Shown here piece by piece: positions 3,097 to 25,282 of a DNA stretch of 31,258 nucleotides. Each line of letters opens with the position of its first letter. Position 1 is the stretch's first letter. Under the pieces are notes generated by a model, which searched no databases, was not told where the DNA came from, and worked only from the letters and a program-made list of their open reading frames with translations. The stretch comes from a virus (lineage: Duplodnaviria > Heunggongvirae > Uroviricota > Caudoviricetes), in the IMG/VR virus record IMGVR_UViG_2718217862_000002. The stretch is one strand, 5' to 3'. The position numbers and the translations under genes are program-made.

Positions 3097-5544
3097 TTAA
3101 CCGTCATGCATCATGCTGGCACGGGCGCGCGCACGTTTATCCCGCTCGTATTTTTCGAGCGCATCCTGTAACTGGCGGTCGAGCTGAGTCCCCGGCGCAG
3201 TACCGCCCGTCAGACTGATGTGATATTCGTTTTTACTCTGGTCCACATAAGAGCGGCCAGCCGGTGCCGTAACCGGCTGATAAGCCTGATAGCCTGCATA
3301 AGAGCTGGTCGCCGGAATATAACCACCGGTGCCATACGTGGCGGCATGAGTTCTGGCGGCGGTCTGGTCAAGTGTGTCTGACTCTTTGTTGATAACACCG
3401 AGTTTTTCCAGTACCCAGTCAATACCACTGCGCAGTTTGTTGAACGCATTAAGCGGCAGCATCAACGCGTCAGCCAGTGCCTGCCCGAACATGACGCCCG
3501 TGTCACGGCAACGGTTCAGGGTGTCCTGGGTGGCTTTAACCGGGGCGATCAGGTTTTTAAACCACTGCCACGCGGCCTGTAACTTTTCGCCCAACCAGTC
3601 AAACACCGGCTTAAGTGGCGTGAACAGTTCCCCCACCGGCGCAAATGCCGCTTTCAGCCCTTCCACCACACCGCCAAAGAATGCGCTGACAGGCTCCCAG
3701 TATTTACGGATAAGCAACGCCCCGGCGACAATGGCGGCCACCACGGCCATAACCGGCCAGCTAATCGCTCCGATGGCGGTCATAACAGCACTGCCAACCG
3801 TCGTGAAGATTGCCCCCATTGCGCCTGCTGCCGCGATGATGGCATTGATGCCGGTGATAACCGGCCAGGCTACGAGGCCAATGGCACCGATGACACCAAT
3901 CAGTGCCAGTGCACCACCGACAATGATGCCGATGGTTGACGCCAGTGATTTGTTTTTCTGGATCCAGCCGTCGAGTTTTAACACATACTTTGTGGCCGTC
4001 TGCGTGAGCTTACGCAGTGCGCCTTCCTGCTGGTCAAACAGGTCAGTCCCCACCGCCTCATAAGCGGACTGAAACTCTTTAAAGTCACCGCCGAGGTTGT
4101 CCTGCATGATATTTAGCAGCTCGGCGGTCTTCCCGTCTGAGGCTTTAAACGCAGCGGTCAGTTTGTCCAGCTTTCCGGTTGAGGCGGCAGTCATCAGCAC
4201 GGCGGCGGCTGAGCTGGCCTCCTCCCCGAAAATGGTTTTCATGTATTCAGCCTGCTGGGCAGTACCGAGCCGGTTTTTCTCAAAACTGGCCTGCATTTCT
4301 TTCAGAATGGTAAATACTGGTCGGGTATTCCCCTTACTGTCTGAGGTTTTTACGCCAAGCTCTTTCAGTGCATCCCATGCTTTTCCCGTCGGTGCCTGCA
4401 GACGGCTTAACACGGCACGGCTTCCCGTCCCCGCCATTGAACCGGTAATTTTTGCATCATGCAGCGCCCCGACCATTGCGGCGGTTTCTTCAATGCTGAC
4501 ACCGGCATTTTTTGCCACAGGTGCGGCATAGGTCAGCGCATCGCTCATACCGTCAAAATCGGCGGCGGTTTTGTTCATCGTCATGGAGAGAACATCCCCG
4601 ATATGAGCGACCTTATCGTTTGAAAGCTGAAAGGCGGATTTCATCCCCATCAGCAGGGCGGCGTTTTCTTCCATCGTGCGGCGGTTCGCCAGCGCCATAT
4701 TCAGCGTGACCGGCGTTGCCGCCTGAATGGCATCAACATCCCCACCCGCTTTCGCGATGATTATCTGTGCACCGGCCGCATCATCCGCCGAGGCGGCGGT
4801 ATTGTCGCCGAGCTGGCGCGCCTGTTTGCGTAGTGCGGTCATTTCGGCGGAGTCTTTTGCCACTCCGAGCACGGCCTGCAATTCTGAGTTTTTCTGCGCA
4901 AACTCATAACCGGGCATCAGCAGCTTAACTCCGGCCATCGTTCCCGCCGCCGCAATCCCCACACCGGCAGCGCCCACCGAGGCCATATTTCCGACCAGTT
5001 CCTTTCCGGCCTGATAACGCTGTTTGACTGCGTTAAGTTTTGCCTGTTGCGCACTGACACGCGCCAGCGCGTCGCGCTGACGGTTAAGCTGTGCGGTGGT
5101 TTCACTGATACGGTTTTTCAGTCCCTGCTCATCATGTGCAAGATTGCGGGTATTAATTCCCACAGCGGCCAGTTCCCGCTGCTGGCGTTTAACGGAATCC
5201 GTCAGGCGGTTATATTTCGCCTGTAAGTCCTCCGCCGCACGCTTTGCGGATTCCAGCACTTTCGCCTGAGCACGGGTCGGACGTTCGGTGTTTTTAAACT
5301 GTGTGGCAAGGGCTTCGGCTTCCTGCCGAGCCTTTTCAAGTGCATGACCAGTCACGGCGAGCTGTGCACTGGTCTTGCGAAATCCCTCAATACGGGATGC
5401 CTGACCGTTCAGCTCGCGCAGTGATTTTTGTGTTTCCCGGATATCCCCCGACAGCGATTTGCTCGCTGTGCGGATGGATTTAAACGGGCGGGATGCCTGG
5501 TCAACAGCCCTGAGCAATACCTGTAATTTTACATTGTTACTCAT
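3097..5544 (-). CDS. T: Tail tape-measure protein gpT, 815 aa
   Basis: Long Ala/Gln-rich coiled-coil N-terminus and central hydrophobic Gly/Ala-rich segment typical of tape-measure proteins; size and position match P2 gpT. Confidence 0.9.
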   Translation of the reverse strand: MSNNVKLQVLLRAVDQASRPFKSIRTASKSLSGDIRETQKSLRELNGQASRIEGFRKTSAQLAVTGHALEKARQEAEALATQFKNTERPTRAQAKVLESAKRAAEDLQAKYNRLTDSVKRQQRELAAVGINTRNLAHDEQGLKNRISETTAQLNRQRDALARVSAQQAKLNAVKQRYQAGKELVGNMASVGAAGVGIAAAGTMAGVKLLMPGYEFAQKNSELQAVLGVAKDSAEMTALRKQARQLGDNTAASADDAAGAQIIIAKAGGDVDAIQAATPVTLNMALANRRTMEENAALLMGMKSAFQLSNDKVAHIGDVLSMTMNKTAADFDGMSDALTYAAPVAKNAGVSIEETAAMVGALHDAKITGSMAGTGSRAVLSRLQAPTGKAWDALKELGVKTSDSKGNTRPVFTILKEMQASFEKNRLGTAQQAEYMKTIFGEEASSAAAVLMTAASTGKLDKLTAAFKASDGKTAELLNIMQDNLGGDFKEFQSAYEAVGTDLFDQQEGALRKLTQTATKYVLKLDGWIQKNKSLASTIGIIVGGALALIGVIGAIGLVAWPVITGINAIIAAAGAMGAIFTTVGSAVMTAIGAISWPVMAVVAAIVAGALLIRKYWEPVSAFFGGVVEGLKAAFAPVGELFTPLKPVFDWLGEKLQAAWQWFKNLIAPVKATQDTLNRCRDTGVMFGQALADALMLPLNAFNKLRSGIDWVLEKLGVINKESDTLDQTAARTHAATYGTGGYIPATSSYAGYQAYQPVTAPAGRSYVDQSKNEYHISLTGGTAPGTQLDRQLQDALEKYERDKRARARASMMHDG

Positions 5545-5964
5545 TCGTGTTTCCGCTTCGCCGGAGCGCCTTTTCGCGCCATGTGATGAGTTCGGTCAGG
5601 CTCATGGGATACAGTTCTGATGGCGGCCAGTGAAATATCACTGCCACATCCGCCATCAGGTCATCGACCGAGAGATTTTTCGGAAACGTCACTGCACCGA
5701 GTTCGGCGACAAAAAACCGACCACCTTACCGGCCAGCGCCACAAGGTCAGGCAGTTCCAGCGCGGCGACTTCCTGCTCGGTCAGCATCGGTGCCGTCATG
5801 CGCGGCAGCACTTTAATCAGTGCATCGACTTCGGAGTTCGCGACTGCAGCCAGACTGACACCGCGCAGCGTCCCGGCATTGGGTTTCATCAGCGTGACCT
5901 GTTCGATAACCTGCTCACCACGTTTGACCGGATTGTCCAGGGTAATGACGTTTTCTTTGTTCAT
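5537..5964 (-). CDS. E+E': gpE+E' fusion made by programmed -1 ribosomal frameshift at TTTTTTG (slippery heptamer at 5710..5716, minus-strand sense); predicted 142 aa
   Basis: Traced by hand: the -1 frame is open from the slippery site down to a TAA at 5539-5537, overlapping the T start at 5544. Product length equals the 142 aa I recall for P2 E+E'. Confidence 0.7.
5689..5964 (-). CDS. E: Tail assembly chaperone gpE, 91 aa
   Basis: MNKENVITLDNPVKRGEQVIEQVTLMKPNAGTLRGVSLAAVANSEVDALIKVLPRMTAPMLTEQEVAALELPDLVALAGKVVGFLSPNSVQ recognised as P2 gpE. Confidence 0.85.
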   Translation of the reverse strand: MNKENVITLDNPVKRGEQVIEQVTLMKPNAGTLRGVSLAAVANSEVDALIKVLPRMTAPMLTEQEVAALELPDLVALAGKVVGFLSPNSVQ

Positions 5965-6551: not shown

Positions 6552-7742
6552 TTAATTGCTGTTAACCGAGGTGACCAGATTTGCCAGGTATTTATCGGTA
6601 ATACGCTGGCGCAGGGTCAGGTTTTCAAGAGGAGGCACCGGGGTATAGTCGTAGTCGATATACAGTTTTCCGGCCTTGAGGGTTTCCGCATCGTTGGATT
6701 CTTCGCTGAACCAGCAGGTCGCATCCACGATATAGCCGTTTGTTTTCAGCTCACGGAATTTGGCATTGATGCCGTCAACGATGTCGCGAATCAGCGTTGC
6801 GGTGATGGGCTTGTCCACCGCCCACATGTGCGCCTCAGCCATCGTGTCGGCCAGCACCTGCGCGGTGCGGGTGTAGTTTTCAAAGAGGAACAGCGGGTCA
6901 TCGGAGCAGGTACGGTTACCCCAGAAGCGGAAACCGTCGCGGCGAATCAGCGTAGTGACGCCTGACTCGTTAAGCAGGTCAGCATCGGTGCCGGACTCCT
7001 GCAAATCCCAGAAGACGGATGCGCTGATGCCGGTAACACCGTTCACCCCGACATTGGACAGCGTTTTATGCCAGCCCTGCTCCTGGTCGATTTTAGCGCG
7101 CAGACCCAGCGCACGGGCGGTGGCATACGCGGTGGCGGTGGTACTGGTGACCGTATCCCATGCGAGGAAATCCGGCCAGATGACCATCAGCTCACGCTGG
7201 CTGAAATTCTGGCGGTAGGCTTTCACCTCGGAAATGGTTTTACAGCCCCATGCGCTGATATACCCGAAAGCGCGCAGCTTCTGACAGACTGATGCCAGTG
7301 CAACAGCCACCTCTTTGGTGTCCAGTCCCGGCACACCAAGAATACGCGGTTTAACACCGGTTACCGACTCCGCCGCCAGCAGGGCTTTCAGTCCGGTGTA
7401 CTGACCGTTTTCGTCGGTGGTGCCGATGATATTGGAAACGGTCTGCGCGAGTTTCGTTTCTTCGTCGTCGCCGGTGCCGTCTTCCACACGCACGACAACG
7501 GTGACCGGTTTTGACTGGTCAGCGATGGCCTGCAACGATGCTGCCAGCGTGCCTTTTTTACCGGCCTTTGCAATTGCGCTCTGCACATTGGTAATCAGCA
7601 CAGGTTTATTGAGGGGGAAGGTTTCCGCATCCGCATCGCTGGCCGTGCAGACCATGCCGACAATGGCAGTGGATACGGTGGAAATGACACGGGTGCCGTC
7701 GTTAATCTCCAGCACCTGCACGCCGTGATGATAGTCACTCAT
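6552..7742 (-). CDS. FI: Contractile tail sheath protein gpFI, 396 aa
   Basis: MSDYHHGVQVLEINDGTRVISTVSTAIVGMVCTASDADAETFPLNKPVLITN... recognised as P2-type sheath; size matches. Confidence 0.9.
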   Translation of the reverse strand: MSDYHHGVQVLEINDGTRVISTVSTAIVGMVCTASDADAETFPLNKPVLITNVQSAIAKAGKKGTLAASLQAIADQSKPVTVVVRVEDGTGDDEETKLAQTVSNIIGTTDENGQYTGLKALLAAESVTGVKPRILGVPGLDTKEVAVALASVCQKLRAFGYISAWGCKTISEVKAYRQNFSQRELMVIWPDFLAWDTVTSTTATAYATARALGLRAKIDQEQGWHKTLSNVGVNGVTGISASVFWDLQESGTDADLLNESGVTTLIRRDGFRFWGNRTCSDDPLFLFENYTRTAQVLADTMAEAHMWAVDKPITATLIRDIVDGINAKFRELKTNGYIVDATCWFSEESNDAETLKAGKLYIDYDYTPVPPLENLTLRQRITDKYLANLVTSVNSN

Positions 7743-7801
7743 CCGTTTAACTCCGTGGTTAATGGGTGAGTGATATTTTCTGTTGTGCCGGAGATGTCAG
7801 G

Positions 7802-7984
7802 CTATTTGTCCCGGTTGGCTAAGGGATGACACAATTTATTCTTTGTCGCTGATGAGGGGAATTTTTTATAGAGCGTGGACAGGCCAATATCAAAAATCAG
7901 CTCACATCCTGCGCACTCCAGCGCGTTACGCTGCAATTCCGTATTCTGGTCATTTGTTGACACGCGGACATAGCCAATAAGCAT
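7802..7984 (-). pseudogene. Serine DNA invertase (Gin/Hin/Pin/Cin family) remnant with an in-frame internal deletion; 60 aa instead of about 190
   Basis: MLIGYVRVSTNDQNTELQRNALECAGCELIF is the conserved invertase N-terminus with the catalytic Ser in VRVSTNDQ; it is joined directly to DIGLSTLYKKFPSS, which matches the extreme C-terminal HTH end of Gin/Pin. The catalytic domain core of about 130 aa is missing. Confidence 0.7.
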
Positions 7985-8011
7985 GATGGATCCCCTGAAT
8001 AAAAACCGGGG

Positions 8012-8521
8012 ATGATGCCAGTTAGCCGTAATCTCTGCATTTTCTTAAACGTTGGTTTGGGAGAAACGATAAATAAAGCCTCCGGAGCTATGCAGAAATC
8101 GGCTAATGGAGCTGATATTTCTGATGTATCAGCCTTCCGAAATGCGCTCCAGTTAGGGACCGCCGCAACACGAGATGTTGGAGCAGATAATGCCTCGAAG
8201 TTACTGGATTTAGACAGCTTCAGGTCAATGATGTCAGGGAATGGCTACATCTACATTCCATGCATTGCGACGACAGGAAACCCGGTGAAACTTATGTTGC
8301 AGTGGGGAACGGTGGCAACACAAAAGGGAGCTGATGCTGGATATGCCTTACCATTTGCTTTTCCCTATGCAGGCTTATTTGCGACCGGAAACCGTGGAAC
8401 ATCTGGCTACAATGCCGCGATGAATGTGCGTATTGCCAGCAGAACGCATATCAGTATTCAGAACTGGTCGCCATCCGGAGAGGGCACCGAAGATTGTTGT
8501 TTTATCGCGCTGGGGTATTAA
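8012..8521 (+). CDS. Alternate tail-fibre C-terminal (receptor-binding, Sv'-like) cassette lacking an N-terminal constant region; probably not expressed as a fibre in this orientation
   Basis: C-terminal part is homologous to the C-terminus of H on the opposite strand (shared GY.Y.P ... LQWG ... ALG[IY]-stop); followed by a tfa gene; begins at the hix-like site. Confidence 0.55.
   Translation: MMPVSRNLCIFLNVGLGETINKASGAMQKSANGADISDVSAFRNALQLGTAATRDVGADNASKLLDLDSFRSMMSGNGYIYIPCIATTGNPVKLMLQWGTVATQKGADAGYALPFAFPYAGLFATGNRGTSGYNAAMNVRIASRTHISIQNWSPSGEGTEDCCFIALGY
8042..8065. promoter_or_regulatory. hix/gix-like recombination-site remnant (TTCTTAAACGTTGGTTTGGGAGAA)
   Basis: Resembles the Hin/Gin crossover consensus (TTCTTGAAAACC..GGTTTTTGATAA-like half-sites) but with a shortened centre; sits exactly where the alternate fibre cassette begins, next to the invertase remnant. 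Confidence 0.35.
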
Positions 8522-8523
8522 GA

Positions 8524-8934
8524 ATGAATAAATTTTATAAAGGCTCTTTCTATCCGAAAGCACTAAAAGAGGTATATATCAGCGCCGGTTCATGGCCTGA
8601 AAATGGCGTTGATGTTGATGATGAAACAATGGCAATTTACACAGGCGTAGCGCCACAAGGCAAAACGCTGGGGGCTGATAAAAATGGTAATCCTGCGTGG
8701 ATTGATATCCCGCCACTCTCCGCTGAACAACAGATTATTCAGGCTGAACAGAAAAGAACGGTATTGCGTTCTATGGCTGATAAGGAAATAGTCTGGAGAC
8801 AGGATGCTTTTGATGCGGAAATCGCGACGGCAGAAGAAACCGCCGCGTTATCTGAATGGAAAAAATACCGGGTGCTGCTGATGCGCGTTGATACCTCAAA
8901 AGCCCCCGATATTCTGTGGCCTCCGCAACCGTAA
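8524..8934 (+). CDS. Tail-fibre assembly protein (Tfa / P2 gpG family), 136 aa
   Basis: C-terminus EWKKYRVLLMRVDTSKAPDILWPPQP matches the conserved Tfa C-terminal motif (lambda Tfa / P2 G type, WRQYRVLLNRVDTSTAPD.WP); ATG at 8524 three nt after the cassette stop. Confidence 0.7.
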   Translation: MNKFYKGSFYPKALKEVYISAGSWPENGVDVDDETMAIYTGVAPQGKTLGADKNGNPAWIDIPPLSAEQQIIQAEQKRTVLRSMADKEIVWRQDAFDAEIATAEETAALSEWKKYRVLLMRVDTSKAPDILWPPQP

Positions 8935-8961
8935 CAAAAAGCCGCTGTTTGCGGCTTTCTC

Positions 8962-10074
8962 TTATATCCCCAGCGCAAGATAGGTGTAGCTGTCAATATT
9001 GTTTGCCGTACCGTTTCCACTCCAGCCATAGAGACTAAACCCGGTCTGCGTGTAATTAACAGATGTTACATACCGATGGTCAGCTGTGATTTTATGCGGA
9101 AGAACGATAAATGGGGTGACATTAAACGGTTTTTTAAAGCTTACCGTAGCATTGGTCGCCTGAACCGAGCCGTGCCCCCATTGCAGCAGCAATCCTCCCG
9201 GTAATTCAAAGTACCCATCAGCCTCCAGTAACCGTTCTCCAAATCCAAGGTATGCGAGAAGACCAGCTACATCCTTTCCACTCAAATGAGTCAGCGTCTC
9301 ATCCAGTGGCTGCTTACCTGACAGCGCATTGTTAATGGTGGTACTGAATTTCGGGTCATTGTTAATGGCTGCGGCAATTTCTTTCAGTGTGTCCAGCGTG
9401 GCTGGCGCACCGTTAATCAGAGCGGTAATAGCGGCCTGAACAAACGCAGTGGTCGCAATCCGCGTGGTGTTATTTCCTGCGGCAGGCGTCGGCGCTTTTG
9501 GTTCTCCGGTAAATGTCGGATTATGTTTCTGCGCATACTGGGTATGAGGATCCTGTGCGGCAATGTGGTTTCTCATCTGGTCATCCACATACAGCCTTAA
9601 TTCCAGGACTTCATCATCCACGTATTTACGGGTCGCCAGTACCACCGACGGGTCGATTTTCAGCGTGATAGCTTCGGTATTCGTGACAACCAGAATCATG
9701 CGGATAGTCTGGGTACGACCACTGCCTTCCTGCAACTGCGGTTTGTACGTTTCCGGGCAGTTCGCCACCGCAATGAGTACGCCTTCATCATCATAAAGCC
9801 CAATCTCACGGATCCAGAATCCGCCCTCGTTCTCAGGGATGATTTGCTCCGCAATAATCTGGCTCTGGTTGTTCGGGTCAACACTCAGAAGATTCAGCGG
9901 CGCGATGCGTTTCTGGTTAATCAGTTTTGTCTGTGCCGGGTCTGGTGTCGGCAAGACACCATTCGCATCACCAACGGCCATTTGCGTCAGATTCAGCTTA
10001 CTGCCGAGCATCGTCGCGTTAGCCAGCCGTGCTGCGCCCTGATTAGTCAGAATGGCGTAGTATTTCACTGTCAT
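8962..10074 (-). CDS. H: Tail fibre protein gpH, 370 aa (P2 H-like N-terminus, divergent shorter C-terminal region)
   Basis: N-terminus MTVKYYAILTNQGAARLANATMLGSKLNLTQMAVGDANG...GGFWIREIGLYDDEGVLIAVANCPETYKP recognisably P2 H-like; position between I and the tail-fibre accessory region. Confidence 0.85.
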   Translation of the reverse strand: MTVKYYAILTNQGAARLANATMLGSKLNLTQMAVGDANGVLPTPDPAQTKLINQKRIAPLNLLSVDPNNQSQIIAEQIIPENEGGFWIREIGLYDDEGVLIAVANCPETYKPQLQEGSGRTQTIRMILVVTNTEAITLKIDPSVVLATRKYVDDEVLELRLYVDDQMRNHIAAQDPHTQYAQKHNPTFTGEPKAPTPAAGNNTTRIATTAFVQAAITALINGAPATLDTLKEIAAAINNDPKFSTTINNALSGKQPLDETLTHLSGKDVAGLLAYLGFGERLLEADGYFELPGGLLLQWGHGSVQATNATVSFKKPFNVTPFIVLPHKITADHRYVTSVNYTQTGFSLYGWSGNGTANNIDSYTYLALGI

Positions 10075-10682
10075 GCGTTTACTCTCAGGTTATCAATTAA
10101 ATGAATGGCCGAGGCCGGGAAATAATCCCCTCCGACAATAATGGCCTCCGGGGTGTAGGGATAAACCGTCAGGGCGTCACCGTGATAGCATCCCGCACCG
10201 GCAAAAATGTTGCCGGTTGTACTTAAACTGATAGCCAGTCCCGTCAGATGGCGGCTTGCCGGTTTTGCATCAGCAACTAGGCGCTCCAGCTCCTGATACA
10301 TTTCCTCGGTAATACCCTGCTCAAGCACGCCAACAACGATACGGAACGTCCCCGGCTCCTCATTGAGTTGCCACCACTCCCTCACCTCAATCAGATAGCC
10401 GAGCGGCTCCACCACACGCCGGATTGCGCCTATAGTGCCCTTATGGCAGTGAATGAAATACGCATCGCGGATAACAGCGCGTTTTGTCGCTTCCGGCCAT
10501 TTATCATCCCAGCGGTCAACCGAAAATGACCACGCCAGCCACGGCAGCAGATTTGCCGGGCAGGTGTCCGGGTTCCACAGCTCACGAATACTGACCGGCG
10601 TTTTTTCAATTTCCGCACAGGCTTTTGCAGCAGCGACTTCAAGCGGTGATGAGCCGGTCGGCAGCAGGCGCGAATCACTCAT
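10071..10682 (-). CDS. I: Baseplate/tail formation protein gpI, 203 aa
   Basis: Synteny (between J and H) and sequence recognition. Confidence 0.8.
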   Translation of the reverse strand: MSDSRLLPTGSSPLEVAAAKACAEIEKTPVSIRELWNPDTCPANLLPWLAWSFSVDRWDDKWPEATKRAVIRDAYFIHCHKGTIGAIRRVVEPLGYLIEVREWWQLNEEPGTFRIVVGVLEQGITEEMYQELERLVADAKPASRHLTGLAISLSTTGNIFAGAGCYHGDALTVYPYTPEAIIVGGDYFPASAIHLIDNLRVNA

Positions 10683-11583
10683 CCGAGCCTCCGGTCACGA
10701 CGCGGTATTCGGTACAGAAAGACGCCTGCGTACTGTTGAGCACGATGTCGGCCAGTGGTGAAGCCAGTTCAACACGCTGCACGCCTTCCACATGCAAAGC
10801 GGCATAAATGGCAGACAGACGGATGTCACGCCCCAGCCGGTGCTGTGCCGTGATGTACGCTTCCAGTTTTTTCACGGCGGCAGCGCGTATGGGTTCGCTT
10901 TCGGGACCAGGGTAAAGGTAAAGCGTGGCGTTTATCTGGTATTCAACGATGGCGGCAGACTGCACGGTCACGCGGTCGGCCACCGGCCTGACGTCCTCGC
11001 CATTAAGGGCGTTACGCACCACAGCCAGCAGGTCTTCGGATGCGACGCCGTTATTTTCACGTGACAGCACAGAGATGGTGACGCAGGCCGGAGACGGACT
11101 GGTGACAGAGATATCCGCGACACGCCCGTCAGCACTGCGACCATGATACTGATAGGCCCCCACCGACCCGGCGACGCTTAAACCTTCAAACGCCTGCTGA
11201 ATACGCAGACGATAATCGGTATCAGATTCCATCACTGCCGGTGTCGGCGGGAGGGTCGAATCATCTGCCGGGGTGATAATCAGGCGCGTGGTGTTGTAAT
11301 TGGCACCAATCACATCAAGGTCATTACCGGCGGCACAGGCCAGCATCACCGCCCGTGCGGCCTCATTCACACGCTGACGCCAGATAAGCTCACGATAAGC
11401 ATTTTCCTCCAGCAGTTTGACGAGAGGCTCGGATTCCAGCGTCAGGGTACGGGCGACCGCCTCCTGCTGGTCTTCCGGGTAAAGGGAAATCAGTGTCGCC
11501 TTGCGTTCGGCAAGAATGGTTTCAAAGTCCAGCTCCTCGACCACATCCGGTGCGGGTAGCTGGTTCAGGTCGATAATCGGCAT
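10675..11583 (-). CDS. J: Baseplate assembly protein gpJ, 302 aa
   Basis: Size identical to P2 gpJ; synteny W-J-I. Confidence 0.9.
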   Translation of the reverse strand: MPIIDLNQLPAPDVVEELDFETILAERKATLISLYPEDQQEAVARTLTLESEPLVKLLEENAYRELIWRQRVNEAARAVMLACAAGNDLDVIGANYNTTRLIITPADDSTLPPTPAVMESDTDYRLRIQQAFEGLSVAGSVGAYQYHGRSADGRVADISVTSPSPACVTISVLSRENNGVASEDLLAVVRNALNGEDVRPVADRVTVQSAAIVEYQINATLYLYPGPESEPIRAAAVKKLEAYITAQHRLGRDIRLSAIYAALHVEGVQRVELASPLADIVLNSTQASFCTEYRVVTGGSDE

Positions 11584-22229: not shown

Positions 22230-23351
22230 ATGATTGCTGATTCAGAAATACTTTATGTTCCGCTAGATGATTTGGAACTTGACACAGAAAACCCAAGACT
22301 TCCTGAAGGCGTGTCTCGTGACCAATTGGGAATGATTAACTACATAGCAACCTCAACATCTATCGAAGACCTAATGAGTGCTATTGCGGAAAATGGTTTT
22401 TTCCCTGGAGAACCATTGATTGTCATTCCTGATAGTGGAGCGCCGGGGAAGTACATTGTAGTTGAAGGAAACCGTCGCCTATCCGCGGTCAAATTATTAC
22501 GCGATCCGACACTATGTGAAAATCCAAGTGCTCGACTACGAGAAATTGCATCAAATGCAAAACATACGGTCGATCGTGTTCCTGTCATTGAGCGCCAAAC
22601 AAGAGAAGAGATTCTTCCGTACCTTGGTTTCAGACATATTACTGGTGTCAAACAATGGGAACCCTTATCAAAAGCTCGATATATTAAACAGCTTTTTGAT
22701 TATACCAATGCAAATCTGGATCCAATGCTACGCTACTATGAGGTTGCCAGAGCTATTGGCAGTCGTAGGGATCATATCAAGCGTAACCTAGACGCTTTAG
22801 CGGTGTATGAAATCATTAAAAAAAATGATTTTTATGGTATTGAAAAGCTAGATGAAGAAACGATTAAATTTTCAGTATTATCAACAGCACTTGCTGATGA
22901 GCGGTTAGGCCAGTTTGTCGGAGTTTCAATCGAAGACGATGGAGACACAATACCAAGTCATCCTATCATCAATTCTAAGAGTTTAAAGAACAAAGAAATA
23001 AAAGAACTAACTGAATGGTTATATAAAAAAGGCGAGGATAAAAAAACTCGTGTAGGAGAATCACGTAATTTAAGAGAACTAGCTGCTGTTGTAAGTAGCC
23101 CTAAGGCATTGGAGCAATTCCGAATGGGGGCTCCACTCGCAGTTGCCTATCAATTGACATCTGATATTACTAAGGACTTTCTCCAGTTACTTTATCAAGT
23201 TGAAGCAGCTTTGATAGATGCAGCAGGCATGGTTGCCACGGTAGAGTATGATAGACAGGCCCATGAAGTAGCACGAAGAATCAATAAACATATTAAGCTT
23301 ATAGGTTCTGAAATAGCAGAGAAAAATAGCAGAGGTGATGATGACTTTTGA
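22230..23351 (+). CDS. ParB/Srx-like (ParB N-terminal nuclease/NTPase-fold) domain protein, about 373 aa; cargo gene 1
   Basis: N-terminal region ILYVPLDDLELDTENPRL ... LMSAIAENGFFPGEPLIVIP ... KYIVVEGNRRLSAVKLL follows the ParB-box pattern (NPR motif, then the G-x-R-R arginine motif). ATG at 22230 preceded by GGAG; the ORF-track start at 22191 is a TTG. AT-rich codon usage unlike the phage backbone. Confidence 0.7.
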   Translation: MIADSEILYVPLDDLELDTENPRLPEGVSRDQLGMINYIATSTSIEDLMSAIAENGFFPGEPLIVIPDSGAPGKYIVVEGNRRLSAVKLLRDPTLCENPSARLREIASNAKHTVDRVPVIERQTREEILPYLGFRHITGVKQWEPLSKARYIKQLFDYTNANLDPMLRYYEVARAIGSRRDHIKRNLDALAVYEIIKKNDFYGIEKLDEETIKFSVLSTALADERLGQFVGVSIEDDGDTIPSHPIINSKSLKNKEIKELTEWLYKKGEDKKTRVGESRNLRELAAVVSSPKALEQFRMGAPLAVAYQLTSDITKDFLQLLYQVEAALIDAAGMVATVEYDRQAHEVARRINKHIKLIGSEIAEKNSRGDDDF

Positions 23352-24330
23352 AGTAGGAGTTATGCATCCCAACTCTCCTCATTTGTTTGCAGATTTAGCC
23401 GAGTTACTCACGGTAATTAATTATACCGGACGTAACTCACTACATAAAAATGATTTAGATTCAGTAAGAAAATTCGGCATAACAAGCGTTGAAGAAATTG
23501 ATGAAGAATGTAATTCTGAAGAAGAAATTAATGGAGACGCTGAGAGAAATGATCGTTTTGAAGAGCAACTCGAAGATGTTTGGACACAACTCGAATATAG
23601 AGAAAGTGCTCTTGGCAAAATATATCCATTTATAATTTCAGGTGATGAGATAATTATTAAAGAAAATCTAAACCAACAACAACGAATATATGTTTTTCTT
23701 CTTTGCTGCTCTAGACTTAGATCCTTTAAGTCGATTAAAGGAGCAGCACAACGTTGGGCAAAGAGCTTTGCCAGAGTATGTAAAGTAGCAATGATTTCTC
23801 TCTTACCTGCACATGGCACCGTAAGAATTTTTGATGCTAACTCCGATGATAGGCAAAATTATTATGGAACAAATCTTCGGACAGCTCTACAAACTTTAGG
23901 AAAAGATCTTGGAGTTTGTAGTTTAAACACAAGGGAAATAAATAGAGCTCCCACATCTGGTGATGCCGGGTTTGACCTAATTGCTACAGTGGAATTTCCT
24001 GATGGTCAAACTAGCAACTATGGAATTCTTGGTCAATGTGGTGCACAAGAAACAGGGTGGCCAAGCAAAACATTAGAGGCTAACGTGTTAAAACTGACCA
24101 CCTATTTCCAAATTGCGTTCCAGCATCCATCAACAATGTTCACGCCTGTTTTCTATCGGGAAGCAAATGGCGAATGGGTAAGCACACACGCAACCGCTGG
24201 AGTATTATTATTAGATAGGTTGAGAATCATATATCTACTTGATAAGGCAAACCAATGGGAAGCGATAACTACCTCTGATTGGTTTCGCGAATTTGAGGAA
24301 GAGCTTTATACATTAAATCCAGAGCCTTAA
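23335..24330 (+). CDS. Hypothetical protein, 331 aa, no domain recognised; overlaps gene 1 by 17 nt; cargo gene 2
   Basis: Long ORF in the AT-rich island, start codons (ATGATGATG) overlapping the 3' end of gene 1; acidic stretch EEIDEECNSEEEINGDAERNDRFEEQLED near the N-terminus. Confidence 0.6.
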   Translation: MMMTFEVGVMHPNSPHLFADLAELLTVINYTGRNSLHKNDLDSVRKFGITSVEEIDEECNSEEEINGDAERNDRFEEQLEDVWTQLEYRESALGKIYPFIISGDEIIIKENLNQQQRIYVFLLCCSRLRSFKSIKGAAQRWAKSFARVCKVAMISLLPAHGTVRIFDANSDDRQNYYGTNLRTALQTLGKDLGVCSLNTREINRAPTSGDAGFDLIATVEFPDGQTSNYGILGQCGAQETGWPSKTLEANVLKLTTYFQIAFQHPSTMFTPVFYREANGEWVSTHATAGVLLLDRLRIIYLLDKANQWEAITTSDWFREFEEELYTLNPEP

Positions 24331-24337
24331 TAGCTTA

Positions 24338-25282
24338 TCAATCCCATAATTCTATTGGCAATGCCTTCGTTACAGCTTCAAAAAGCGGCGGAGGCACTGC
24401 ATTACCAACCACCGTGTATTTCATGCCAAGACTTGCAGCATTTGTTTCTGGAAACACTAGATCCTCAAACCCTTGTAATAGTGCAGCCTCTCGAAAACTG
24501 AATCTGCGAGCTCTCCGATCCTCAACAAATCTCCATTCATCAGTTCTTACTTTCTCCATCGGAGGACTGACAGGATGCAACGGCATATGCCTTGCATTAG
24601 CAACTATTGTCTTTGAAATTTGATCCCAATCCTGGCGACGATTGCGAGACATATAATACCAATGGAATCCCATATCATAAAATTCACCTTCTGGCCATTC
24701 AGGTAAATGCCCTATAGCATCTTTAATAGTAACATAGTTGACGCCAGTTGCTGGCCCATGAGTTGGCTGAGGGAACTCGTACTTAACTTTGAAATCATTA
24801 CGGATTCCTACGATAAATATTCTTTTTCTTTCCTGCGCTACTCCATATTCAGCCGCATTTAAAACTTTTGCGGAAACAGTATAACCTGCTTCAGTAAAAA
24901 CCCTGATCTGGTCAGATAACAAATGCTCAAAATTTTTTCTAACCATACCAGACACGTTTTCTACTATAAAAGCTTTAGGCTTTATATTGTTTAAAGCTCT
25001 AGCAAACTCTAAATAAAGAGTATTAATTTTTCGATCGGCTTTACGCGCACCACCCTGGCTGAATCCCTGACATGGATAACAACCTACCAGCAAATCAGAT
25101 TTAGGAAAAGTAGTTACATCAGCAATATTGCCTAATATGTAATCAGTTTCTGGATGATTGGCAATATAAACATCGCGCGCATACGGCAAGATATCGTTGG
25201 CCATAAGCACATCAAAGCCGGCTCTCAAAACCCCCGCATCGGAACCACCGCATCCAGAAAAAAGTGAAACTACTGTTGGCAT
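24338..25282 (-). CDS. DNA (cytosine-5)-methyltransferase, 314 aa; cargo gene 3
   Basis: Canonical m5C MTase motifs in order: FSGCGG (motif I, AdoMet binding), PCQGFS (motif IV, catalytic Cys), ENV (motif VI), QERKR (motif VIII). Convergent with gene 2, stops 8 bp apart. Confidence 0.9.
   Translation of the reverse strand: MPTVVSLFSGCGGSDAGVLRAGFDVLMANDILPYARDVYIANHPETDYILGNIADVTTFPKSDLLVGCYPCQGFSQGGARKADRKINTLYLEFARALNNIKPKAFIVENVSGMVRKNFEHLLSDQIRVFTEAGYTVSAKVLNAAEYGVAQERKRIFIVGIRNDFKVKYEFPQPTHGPATGVNYVTIKDAIGHLPEWPEGEFYDMGFHWYYMSRNRRQDWDQISKTIVANARHMPLHPVSPPMEKVRTDEWRFVEDRRARRFSFREAALLQGFEDLVFPETNAASLGMKYTVVGNAVPPPLFEAVTKALPIELWD

Follow-up and report, generated by a model that had tools for sequence, protein, structure and literature searches.

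Whether the tail-fibre locus of a P2-like prophage is the remnant of a host-range switch or a switch still in operation is the question raised by positions 7802-10074 of the virus record IMGVR_UViG_2718217862_000002, a stretch of 31,258 nucleotides (nt) that was analysed as a whole and is hereafter called the window. In this locus the minus strand carries the fibre gene H, and the plus strand carries a cassette encoding an alternative fibre tip followed by a tail-fibre assembly gene (tfa). The original prediction traced the locus to an invertible fibre-tip module of the type of Mu G, P1 C and e14 P, an origin that is upheld here, but considered it decayed, with one tfa, the invertase core and the H-side crossover site lost and one fibre variant fixed. 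The analysis reported here leads to a different reading, to which we assign a probability of about 70%: that, within an apparently complete P2-like prophage, 7802-10074 forms an invertible host-range switch of the Gin/Cin/Pin type that is active, has lost its own invertase by deletion, is inverted in trans and has an asymmetric tfa arrangement.

Both orientations of the segment occur in near-identical prophages

Escherichia coli AR_0137 contains the same prophage as the window, with the same recombinase pseudogene, and in it the middle of the locus is inverted: a fibre gene H' of 431 amino acids (aa) is followed by tfa in cis, and the former H tip is a silent cassette of 108 aa. When the window was inverted in silico, with the crossover placed anywhere in 8051-8055, the AR_0137 arrangement was reproduced with 0 mismatches over 5501 base pairs (bp), and with 2 mismatches over the whole 31,258 bp. 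The prophage of JX4-T is the inverted form of the window with 0 mismatches over positions 7300-31258 (24 kb). A census drawn from 5426 complete E. coli genomes yielded 6 carriers oriented like the window (orientation A) and 12 with the inverted form (orientation B), all of which share one recombinase pseudogene with an identical deletion junction. Four single-nucleotide polymorphisms (SNPs) separate the carrier prophages and form a haplotype series from 0 to 3, along which the orientations are A and B, B, A and B:

Haplotype 0 (that of the window), no SNPs: orientation A in Y5 and strain 1000, orientation B in JX4-T
Haplotype 1, 15513G and 20136T: orientation B in AR_0137
Haplotype 2, haplotype 1 plus 7824A: orientation A in P50
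Haplotype 3, haplotype 2 plus 20111A: orientation B in 23CRST051

Since haplotypes and orientations are interleaved, at least three inversions must have taken place after the deletion of the invertase. Moreover, exchange mapped to 8052-8055, at the centre of repeats that have only 4-5 identical bases there, which points to a serine invertase and not to homologous recombination. Both isomers thus exist, the point of exchange is precise and inversion recurred after the invertase had been deleted. The notion of a single fixed fibre variant did not survive these observations, and with it the description of the module as decayed is refuted, as the segment still flips among near-identical E. coli prophages.

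Crossover sites and the fibre tips exchanged between them

The elements that take part in the exchange are as follows:

8040-8065: invertase-proximal crossover site, 26 bp, TTTTCTTAAACGTTGGTTTGGGAGAA, core TT at 8052-8053, coding for ..FLNVGLGE.. of the silent cassette open reading frame (ORF)
9235-9260: H-internal crossover site, 26 bp, TTCTCCAAATCCAAGGTATGCGAGAA, core AA (plus strand) at 9247-9248, coding for ..LAYLGFGE.. of H
8962-10074, minus strand: H, 370 aa, with Pfam Phage_tail_fib at residues 1-150 (N-terminus) and Gp53-like_C at 291-369
9261-10074, minus strand: constant N-terminal part of H (baseplate attachment and shaft), which includes the Phage_tail_fib match and is common to both isoforms
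8962-9234, minus strand: Hv, the variable tip of H in the orientation of the window, about 91 aa, a Gp53-like lectin-type head with no tfa after it
8012-8521, plus strand: cassette of the alternative tip Hv', 169 aa, matching Pfam Gp53-like_C, with its variable part at 8054-8521, silent in the orientation of the window

The pair 8040-8065 and 9235-9260 is the top inverted repeat of the region 7700-10200, and the same two positions are the only matches in the 31 kb to a gix/hix-type palindromic pattern scanned with up to 3 mismatches, for which the chance expectation is 0 (no matches in 100 shuffles). As a positive control, the gix pattern picked exactly the annotated gixL and gixR boundaries of the Mu G segment, and it gave exactly two sites in every related locus. 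The central dinucleotides agree in inverted orientation (TT against AA), and both sites are read in one frame, as ..VGLGE.. in the cassette and as ..LGFGE.. in H. Relatives and P2-like phages such as pro483 share the constant part of H at 97-99% identity, and in all of them this homology begins exactly at 9235. The H-side site reported as lost is therefore intact, at 9235-9260, and the two sites bound a segment of 1.2 kb.

The C-termini of the cassette product and of H were proposed to be homologous, and they are: their similarity is weak but genuine (26% identity, pairwise E=0.004), and both proteins score above the Pfam cut-off for Gp53-like_C (35.3 bits, with 24.9 required). Among the motifs said to be shared, LQWG and the ALG[IY] ends were found in both, whereas GY.Y.P fits the cassette (GYIYIP) and fails for H (GYFELP). 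Inversion places Hv' in frame behind the constant part of H, and the 431-aa fibre H' results. The locus thus provides alternative in-frame C-termini for an N-terminal part encoded outside the segment, in the form of H (370 aa) and H' (431 aa), which are both intact, each having a tail-collar N-terminus and a Gp53-like_C end. The ratio of non-synonymous to synonymous substitution rates (dN/dS) of Hv is about 0.16 against the tips of the related loci L006 and L007, indicating that Hv is under purifying selection. Searches of the Protein Data Bank (PDB) by sequence, with H or with the tip alone, returned matches to the shaft only or an insignificant match (E=0.87).

The invertible segment does not include the ATG at 8012 of the annotated "gp53-like domain-containing protein". 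From this ATG, a promoterless ORF crosses the site in frame into whichever tip is silent, giving 169 aa in the window and 108 aa in the inverted form, and the Prokaryotic Genome Annotation Pipeline (PGAP) calls both of these ORFs genes. The leader of the cassette ORF, MMP..CIF.NVGLGE, is kept in L006 and L007 and overlaps the presumed promoter and leader region of the invertase.

The resident invertase is deleted and a candidate enhancer is spared

Between the sheath gene FI and H lie four features, namely an invertase remnant (minus strand), the cassette ORF and tfa (both plus strand) and a GC-rich hairpin. The remnant and the sequences next to it comprise:

7802-7984, minus strand: remnant of a serine invertase of the Gin/Pin family, 60 aa, with a Pfam Resolvase match on residues 3-35 only
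7890-7901: deletion junction at a 12-bp direct repeat, which occurs twice in the intact gene (ELIF and ALIF codons)
7900-7962: candidate recombinational enhancer with two 15-mers that fit the Fis consensus (consensus scan)
7948-7962: Fis-consensus 15-mer TGTCAACAAATGACC, centred 97.5 bp from the centre of the crossover site
7900-7914: Fis-consensus 15-mer GCGCAGGATGTGAGC, centred 145.5 bp from the centre of the crossover site

Loss of the invertase core, as originally predicted, was confirmed. In the remnant, residues 1-31 are joined in frame to the last ~29 residues; relative to the intact 197-aa gene of E. coli 1002W03 (L002) and GZEC065 (L003), this amounts to an in-frame deletion of 411 bp, with which the catalytic core was lost along with most of the DNA-binding domain. 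Two blastn segments obtained against GZEC065 overlap at the direct repeat of the junction. Mu Gin and the intact 197-aa invertase of the relative share 74% identity. A functional invertase gene adjacent to the segment or within it is a feature of the Gin, Hin, Cin and Pin systems; here just the remnant is present.

The two candidate Fis sites, 48 bp apart between centres, are both spared by the deletion, the distal one ending right at its junction. In Mu gin, near-identical sequences are found at 96.5 and 144.5 bp from the centre of gixR. The geometry of the candidate sites also agrees with that of the published Hin enhancer, which is 65 bp long, has a Fis site at each end and lies about 100 bp from hixL (PMC3798978). 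Judging from these comparisons, every cis element of the switch appears to have been kept, the recombinase alone being missing.

Because all cis elements are seemingly retained and inversion went on after the deletion, we infer that the recombinase acts in trans; inversion would then be catalysed by a related serine invertase from another prophage or element in the cell. Cross-action among such serine invertases is established; in one example, cited in PMC4272514, Kutsukake (2006) reportedly described two invertases that act in the flagellar phase variation of Salmonella. Among complete E. coli genomes, 83% have a DNA homologue of the deleted invertase core, pinE included, and isolate AF51 combines this prophage with another P2-like prophage whose 197-aa invertase is intact; AF51 is the one case in which a co-resident intact invertase was shown explicitly, the 83% being a population figure.

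A single tfa gene that accompanies Hv'

Downstream of the two tips, the strands converge on the following features:

8524-8934, plus strand: tfa, 136 aa, Caudo_TAP at 2.3e-36, ending 27 nt from the stop codon of H
8938-8958: GC-rich hairpin with A and T runs on its flanks, located where tfa and H converge, between their stop codons, found in a plus-strand terminator scan

The gene order described originally was correct on two counts, in that H stops at 8962 on the minus strand with no minus-strand tfa after it, and that a plus-strand tfa lies near this stop. The tfa product matches the full length of the profile PF02413 with 125.3 bits (cut-off 22.1). No second tfa was found in any frame of the 31-kb window by tblastn with five diverse Tfa proteins, the sole match being 8524-8931 on the plus strand. 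In Mu G and P1 C modules each tip has its own tfa; the window has a single Caudo_TAP gene, on the strand of Hv', and only inversion brings this gene into cis with the fibre gene.

This one-tfa order also occurs next to intact invertases. In a P2-like prophage of E. coli LZYWN_4 (L007), with an intact invertase of 188 aa, a site is followed by a cassette and tfa on one strand and by the H tip on the other, with the second site inside H. Prophages of Klebsiella (L009) and Salmonella (L017 and L018) have the one-tfa order in the inverted orientation, again with intact invertases, and L006 has it on a different baseplate type. Since modules of E. coli, Klebsiella and Salmonella combine this layout with intact invertases, the single tfa would be the native layout of such modules, and the idea that one tfa was lost is unlikely.

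Comparisons between modules bear on the tip to which the gene belongs. The Hv tips of L006 and L007 share about 82% protein identity with that of the window, while their cassette and tfa are both of a different sequence type; as the type of tfa changes with Hv' while Hv is kept, tfa travels with Hv' and not with Hv. The Hv-type tip module was without a tfa of its own in every context seen. The stretch comprising the end of tfa, the hairpin and the junction to Hv recurs in 19 E. coli genomes with an identity of at least 99%, and diverged forms (81-86%) occur in other elements. Breakpoints of module exchange fall in the last ~33 nt of tfa (8900-8934, motif APDI[LV]WP): two-tfa relatives are homologous up to 8900, and segments of the type of L006 and L007 from 8902 on. 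The conserved 3' end of tfa thus seems to be a recombination joint for swapping the tips of the opposite strand.

The locus L010 belongs to a phage and is non-invertible; its fibre of 181 aa ends in a tip 72% identical to Hv and has no tfa, the next gene after it belonging to a convergent YqaJ/RecT pair. A tblastn search with the Hv tip of 50,697 phage records gave a weak partial match to pro483 only and no tfa-less tip context, and tip contexts were therefore compared in metagenome and genome contigs. When purified, gp53 of AP22, the founding member of the Gp53-like family, is a trimer with a lectin-fold head, and the paper describing it mentions no chaperone. Taken together, the one-tfa relatives, the co-variation of tfa and Hv', the dN/dS of Hv, L010 and AP22 gp53 favour the view that Hv folds without Tfa and that the single tfa is dedicated to Hv'.

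On another contig, L016 (ENA ERZ1745275), positions 4884-5570 encode a short fibre of 181 aa with a tip 95% identical to Hv of the window. Its baseplate is of a different type (Sheath_initiator, Phage_Wedge1), and a convergent Caudo_TAP fragment follows 27 nt after the fibre, at the contig end, which suggests that the one-tfa invertible module also serves non-P2 tails.

Probable transcription of the two orientations

Folding of the hairpin at 8938-8958 yielded -13.3 kcal/mol on the plus strand and -18.5 kcal/mol on the minus strand (z about -3.5 and -3.9), and T-rich tracts follow it in both directions. Modelled in this way, the hairpin is a candidate bidirectional terminator, which would stop the late V-W-J-I-H transcript behind Hv in the orientation of the window and, once the segment is inverted, behind Hv'-tfa. 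A scan found no sigma-70-like promoter upstream of 8012 on the plus strand for the cassette and tfa, and no P2 late-promoter dyad (TGT-N12-ACA) was found near FI or the segment. By analogy with S' and U' in Mu G(+), tfa is probably silent in the orientation of the window.

Relation to known switches and to sister modules

The resemblance to Mu G/Gin, and likewise to P1 C/Cin and e14 P/Pin, extends to 26-bp imperfect palindromic sites in inverted orientation with matching central dinucleotides, to an invertase gene that adjoins one site (its intact relative being the one close to Gin), to candidate Fis-type enhancer sequences in the 5' end of that gene at an equal distance from the site, and to an inversion that exchanges the tip at the C-terminus of a fibre while its N-terminal part is encoded outside the segment. 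By contrast, the segment measures 1.2 kb here and 3 kb in Mu; one tfa is present instead of the two of Mu (S-U / U'-S'); the tips of the window, unlike those of Mu, are short Gp53-like heads; and the resident invertase, unlike that of Mu, is deleted, so that inversion must be catalysed in trans.

Earlier reports already document serine-invertase fibre switches in P2-like E. coli prophages (PMC4272514) and in systematic surveys (PMC9881135). In a P2-like prophage of enteropathogenic E. coli (EPEC) E2348/69, an invertase and inverted repeats generate alternative fibre C-termini, and both forms coexist in cultures (Goldberg et al. 2014, PMC4272514); that paper credits the loci to the invertase and the inverted repeats, and no discussion of tfa content or of dependence in trans was found in the text consulted.

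The modules of LZYWN_4 (L007), Klebsiella pneumoniae (L009) and Salmonella enterica (L017 and L018) have the architecture of the window and an Hv tip 80-87% identical to its own; they differ in having an intact invertase of 188-199 aa, another type of Hv' and tfa, and a longer constant part of H (444-496 aa). The two-tfa modules of 1002W03 and AF51 (L011), which belong to the prophage lineage of the window, share with it the invertase-proximal site, Hv' and tfa (98-99% identical up to 8900) and the constant part of H, whereas their opposite-strand tip is of another type with a Caudo_TAP gene of its own (197-200 aa). Where these two have the second Caudo_TAP gene, GZEC065 has a 77-aa ORF without Pfam match. 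From the sequences compared, the module family is itself modular.

ORFs of 74-77 aa without Pfam match follow the fibre gene, where tfa is expected, in GZEC065 (3127-3360) and in Escherichia phage phi458 (OP434518; L005, 4421-4645); they could encode a different small chaperone or be spurious. In phi458 the homologous invertible region (3136-3833) is broken by IS1 (InsA / transposase B) and the invertase is annotated at only 92 aa, so this module looks genuinely decayed. The phi458 match was ruled out as a copy of the same segment in another phage, having a different H tip followed by the 74-aa ORF and the IS1 insertion. In 1002W03, H is split into two pseudogene fragments (3717-5000) despite an intact invertase and two tfa genes.

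Prophage setting

The window is a complete-looking P2-like prophage which, from the RefSeq annotation of identical copies, is located between fieF and cpxP. RefSeq annotation of AR_0137, JX4-T and P50 gives the P2 gene order ogr-D-U-T-E-FII-FI, H-I-J-W-V, Q-P-O-N-M-L, followed by A, cox, C and int, and the Pfam matches in window proteins include sheath and Tail_P2_I. The tail genes that flank the locus are:

10675-11583, minus strand: J
10071-10682, minus strand: I
6552-7742, minus strand: FI (sheath)

The portal and replication genes of the prophage are separated by an accessory island at 22230-25282. This island encodes a protein with a ParB-N domain (22230-23351, plus strand) that matches PADLOC PD-Lambda-5_A at 6e-29, an overlapping partner ORF without PADLOC match (23341-24330, plus strand) and a convergent C5 DNA methyltransferase (24338-25282, minus strand; DruM/MTase_II, 1e-113). 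To judge by these matches, the island looks like anti-phage defence cargo in a P2 hotspot.

Discussion

In the mechanism that we propose, the 1.2-kb segment would hold two fibre tips on opposite strands, and, depending on its orientation, one or the other would extend the constant part of H in frame. As the window has it, H would end in the short Gp53-like Hv with the terminator hairpin directly after it; in the other orientation it would end in the longer Hv', followed in cis by the dedicated tfa. The in-frame deletion would have destroyed the resident invertase while sparing both sites and the Fis-type enhancer, and the segment would still be inverted by a related serine invertase from a co-resident prophage or element. 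A more specific version of this proposal, which we hold at even odds, is that the switch toggles between a chaperone-dependent tip (Hv' with Tfa) and a chaperone-independent one (Hv), that the one-Tfa module is kept across Escherichia, Klebsiella and Salmonella, and that orphan copies without invertase borrow those of co-resident prophages, their cis enhancer being intact.

Several points weigh against the interpretation of the locus as a live switch operated in trans. An assembly reports a consensus orientation, and the culture behind it may be mixed. In the window's own genome, a similarity search that gives one place per record did not locate an invertase. The enhancer was judged from a degenerate Fis consensus and from conservation in Mu gin, which is partly forced by the coding sequence. 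As to the independence of Hv from Tfa, L010 was seen over 8 kb of its 23-kb contig, and Hv' has the same Pfam domain as Hv and yet does have a tfa.

One alternative is that orientation A needs Tfa in trans, from the plus-strand gene or from another prophage, or that it represents an effectively OFF or low-infectivity state; tfa would then serve both tips, or only the inverted form would give good fibres. Besides the shared domain of two tips of which one has a tfa, 12 of the 18 near-identical prophages and most database forms of the cassette (108-aa proteins) are in the orientation with tfa in cis, and many E. coli genomes contain several tfa genes, all of which suits this explanation. It is difficult to reconcile, however, with the lack of a promoter-like site before the plus-strand cassette and tfa and with the terminator hairpin that parts the two units, with a type of tfa that changes along with Hv' while Hv does not, with the purifying selection on Hv, and with the occurrence in L010 of an Hv-type tip as the only tip of a phage fibre without adjoining tfa; we regard it as rather unlikely. 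Far less probable still is that the two orientations arose by RecA-dependent recombination between the repeats, by inversion that preceded independent identical deletions, or as assembly artefacts, even though switching within one culture was not directly observed here. The repeats are 73% complementary over 26 nt and their longest shared run lies at the exact centre, the cut point of serine invertases; this identity is too short for homologous recombination. Independent deletions are hard to square with the identical junction of all carriers, and artefacts with 18 independent complete assemblies, from different laboratories, that show clean isomers. Least credible of all, and given hardly any weight, is the frozen module deprived of one tfa, its invertase and the H-side site: the deleted invertase core and the single tfa are what it would predict, but the H-side site is present, both orientations occur among prophages 0-4 SNPs apart and are interleaved with their haplotypes, and the one-tfa layout accompanies intact invertases in three genera.

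The active switch that remains as the preferred reading is a known kind of system with two modest twists, being orphaned but active and having a conserved asymmetric chaperone arrangement, and it leaves the known mechanism of serine-invertase switches unchanged. Among the textbook features of these systems, the sites, the in-frame exchange of tips and observed inversion are all present, and the enhancer is likely so; those lacking are a functional invertase in cis and a tfa for each tip. The annotated 370-aa fibre would be one of two isoforms, and the locus a live phase-variable host-range switch and not a fossil. As a clean natural example, it would show how a fibre inversion segment can stay active through a recombinase supplied in trans once its own is lost. 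The one-tfa layout offers a matched pair of related tips, with and without a chaperone gene, that may be used to study the Tfa-dependence of Gp53-like heads. The finding also bears on the prediction of host range from a single assembly, be it for prophages, P2-derived tailocins or engineered particles. If orphan copies do borrow invertases, the capacity of any one prophage to go on diversifying its host range would depend on which prophages the cell contains.

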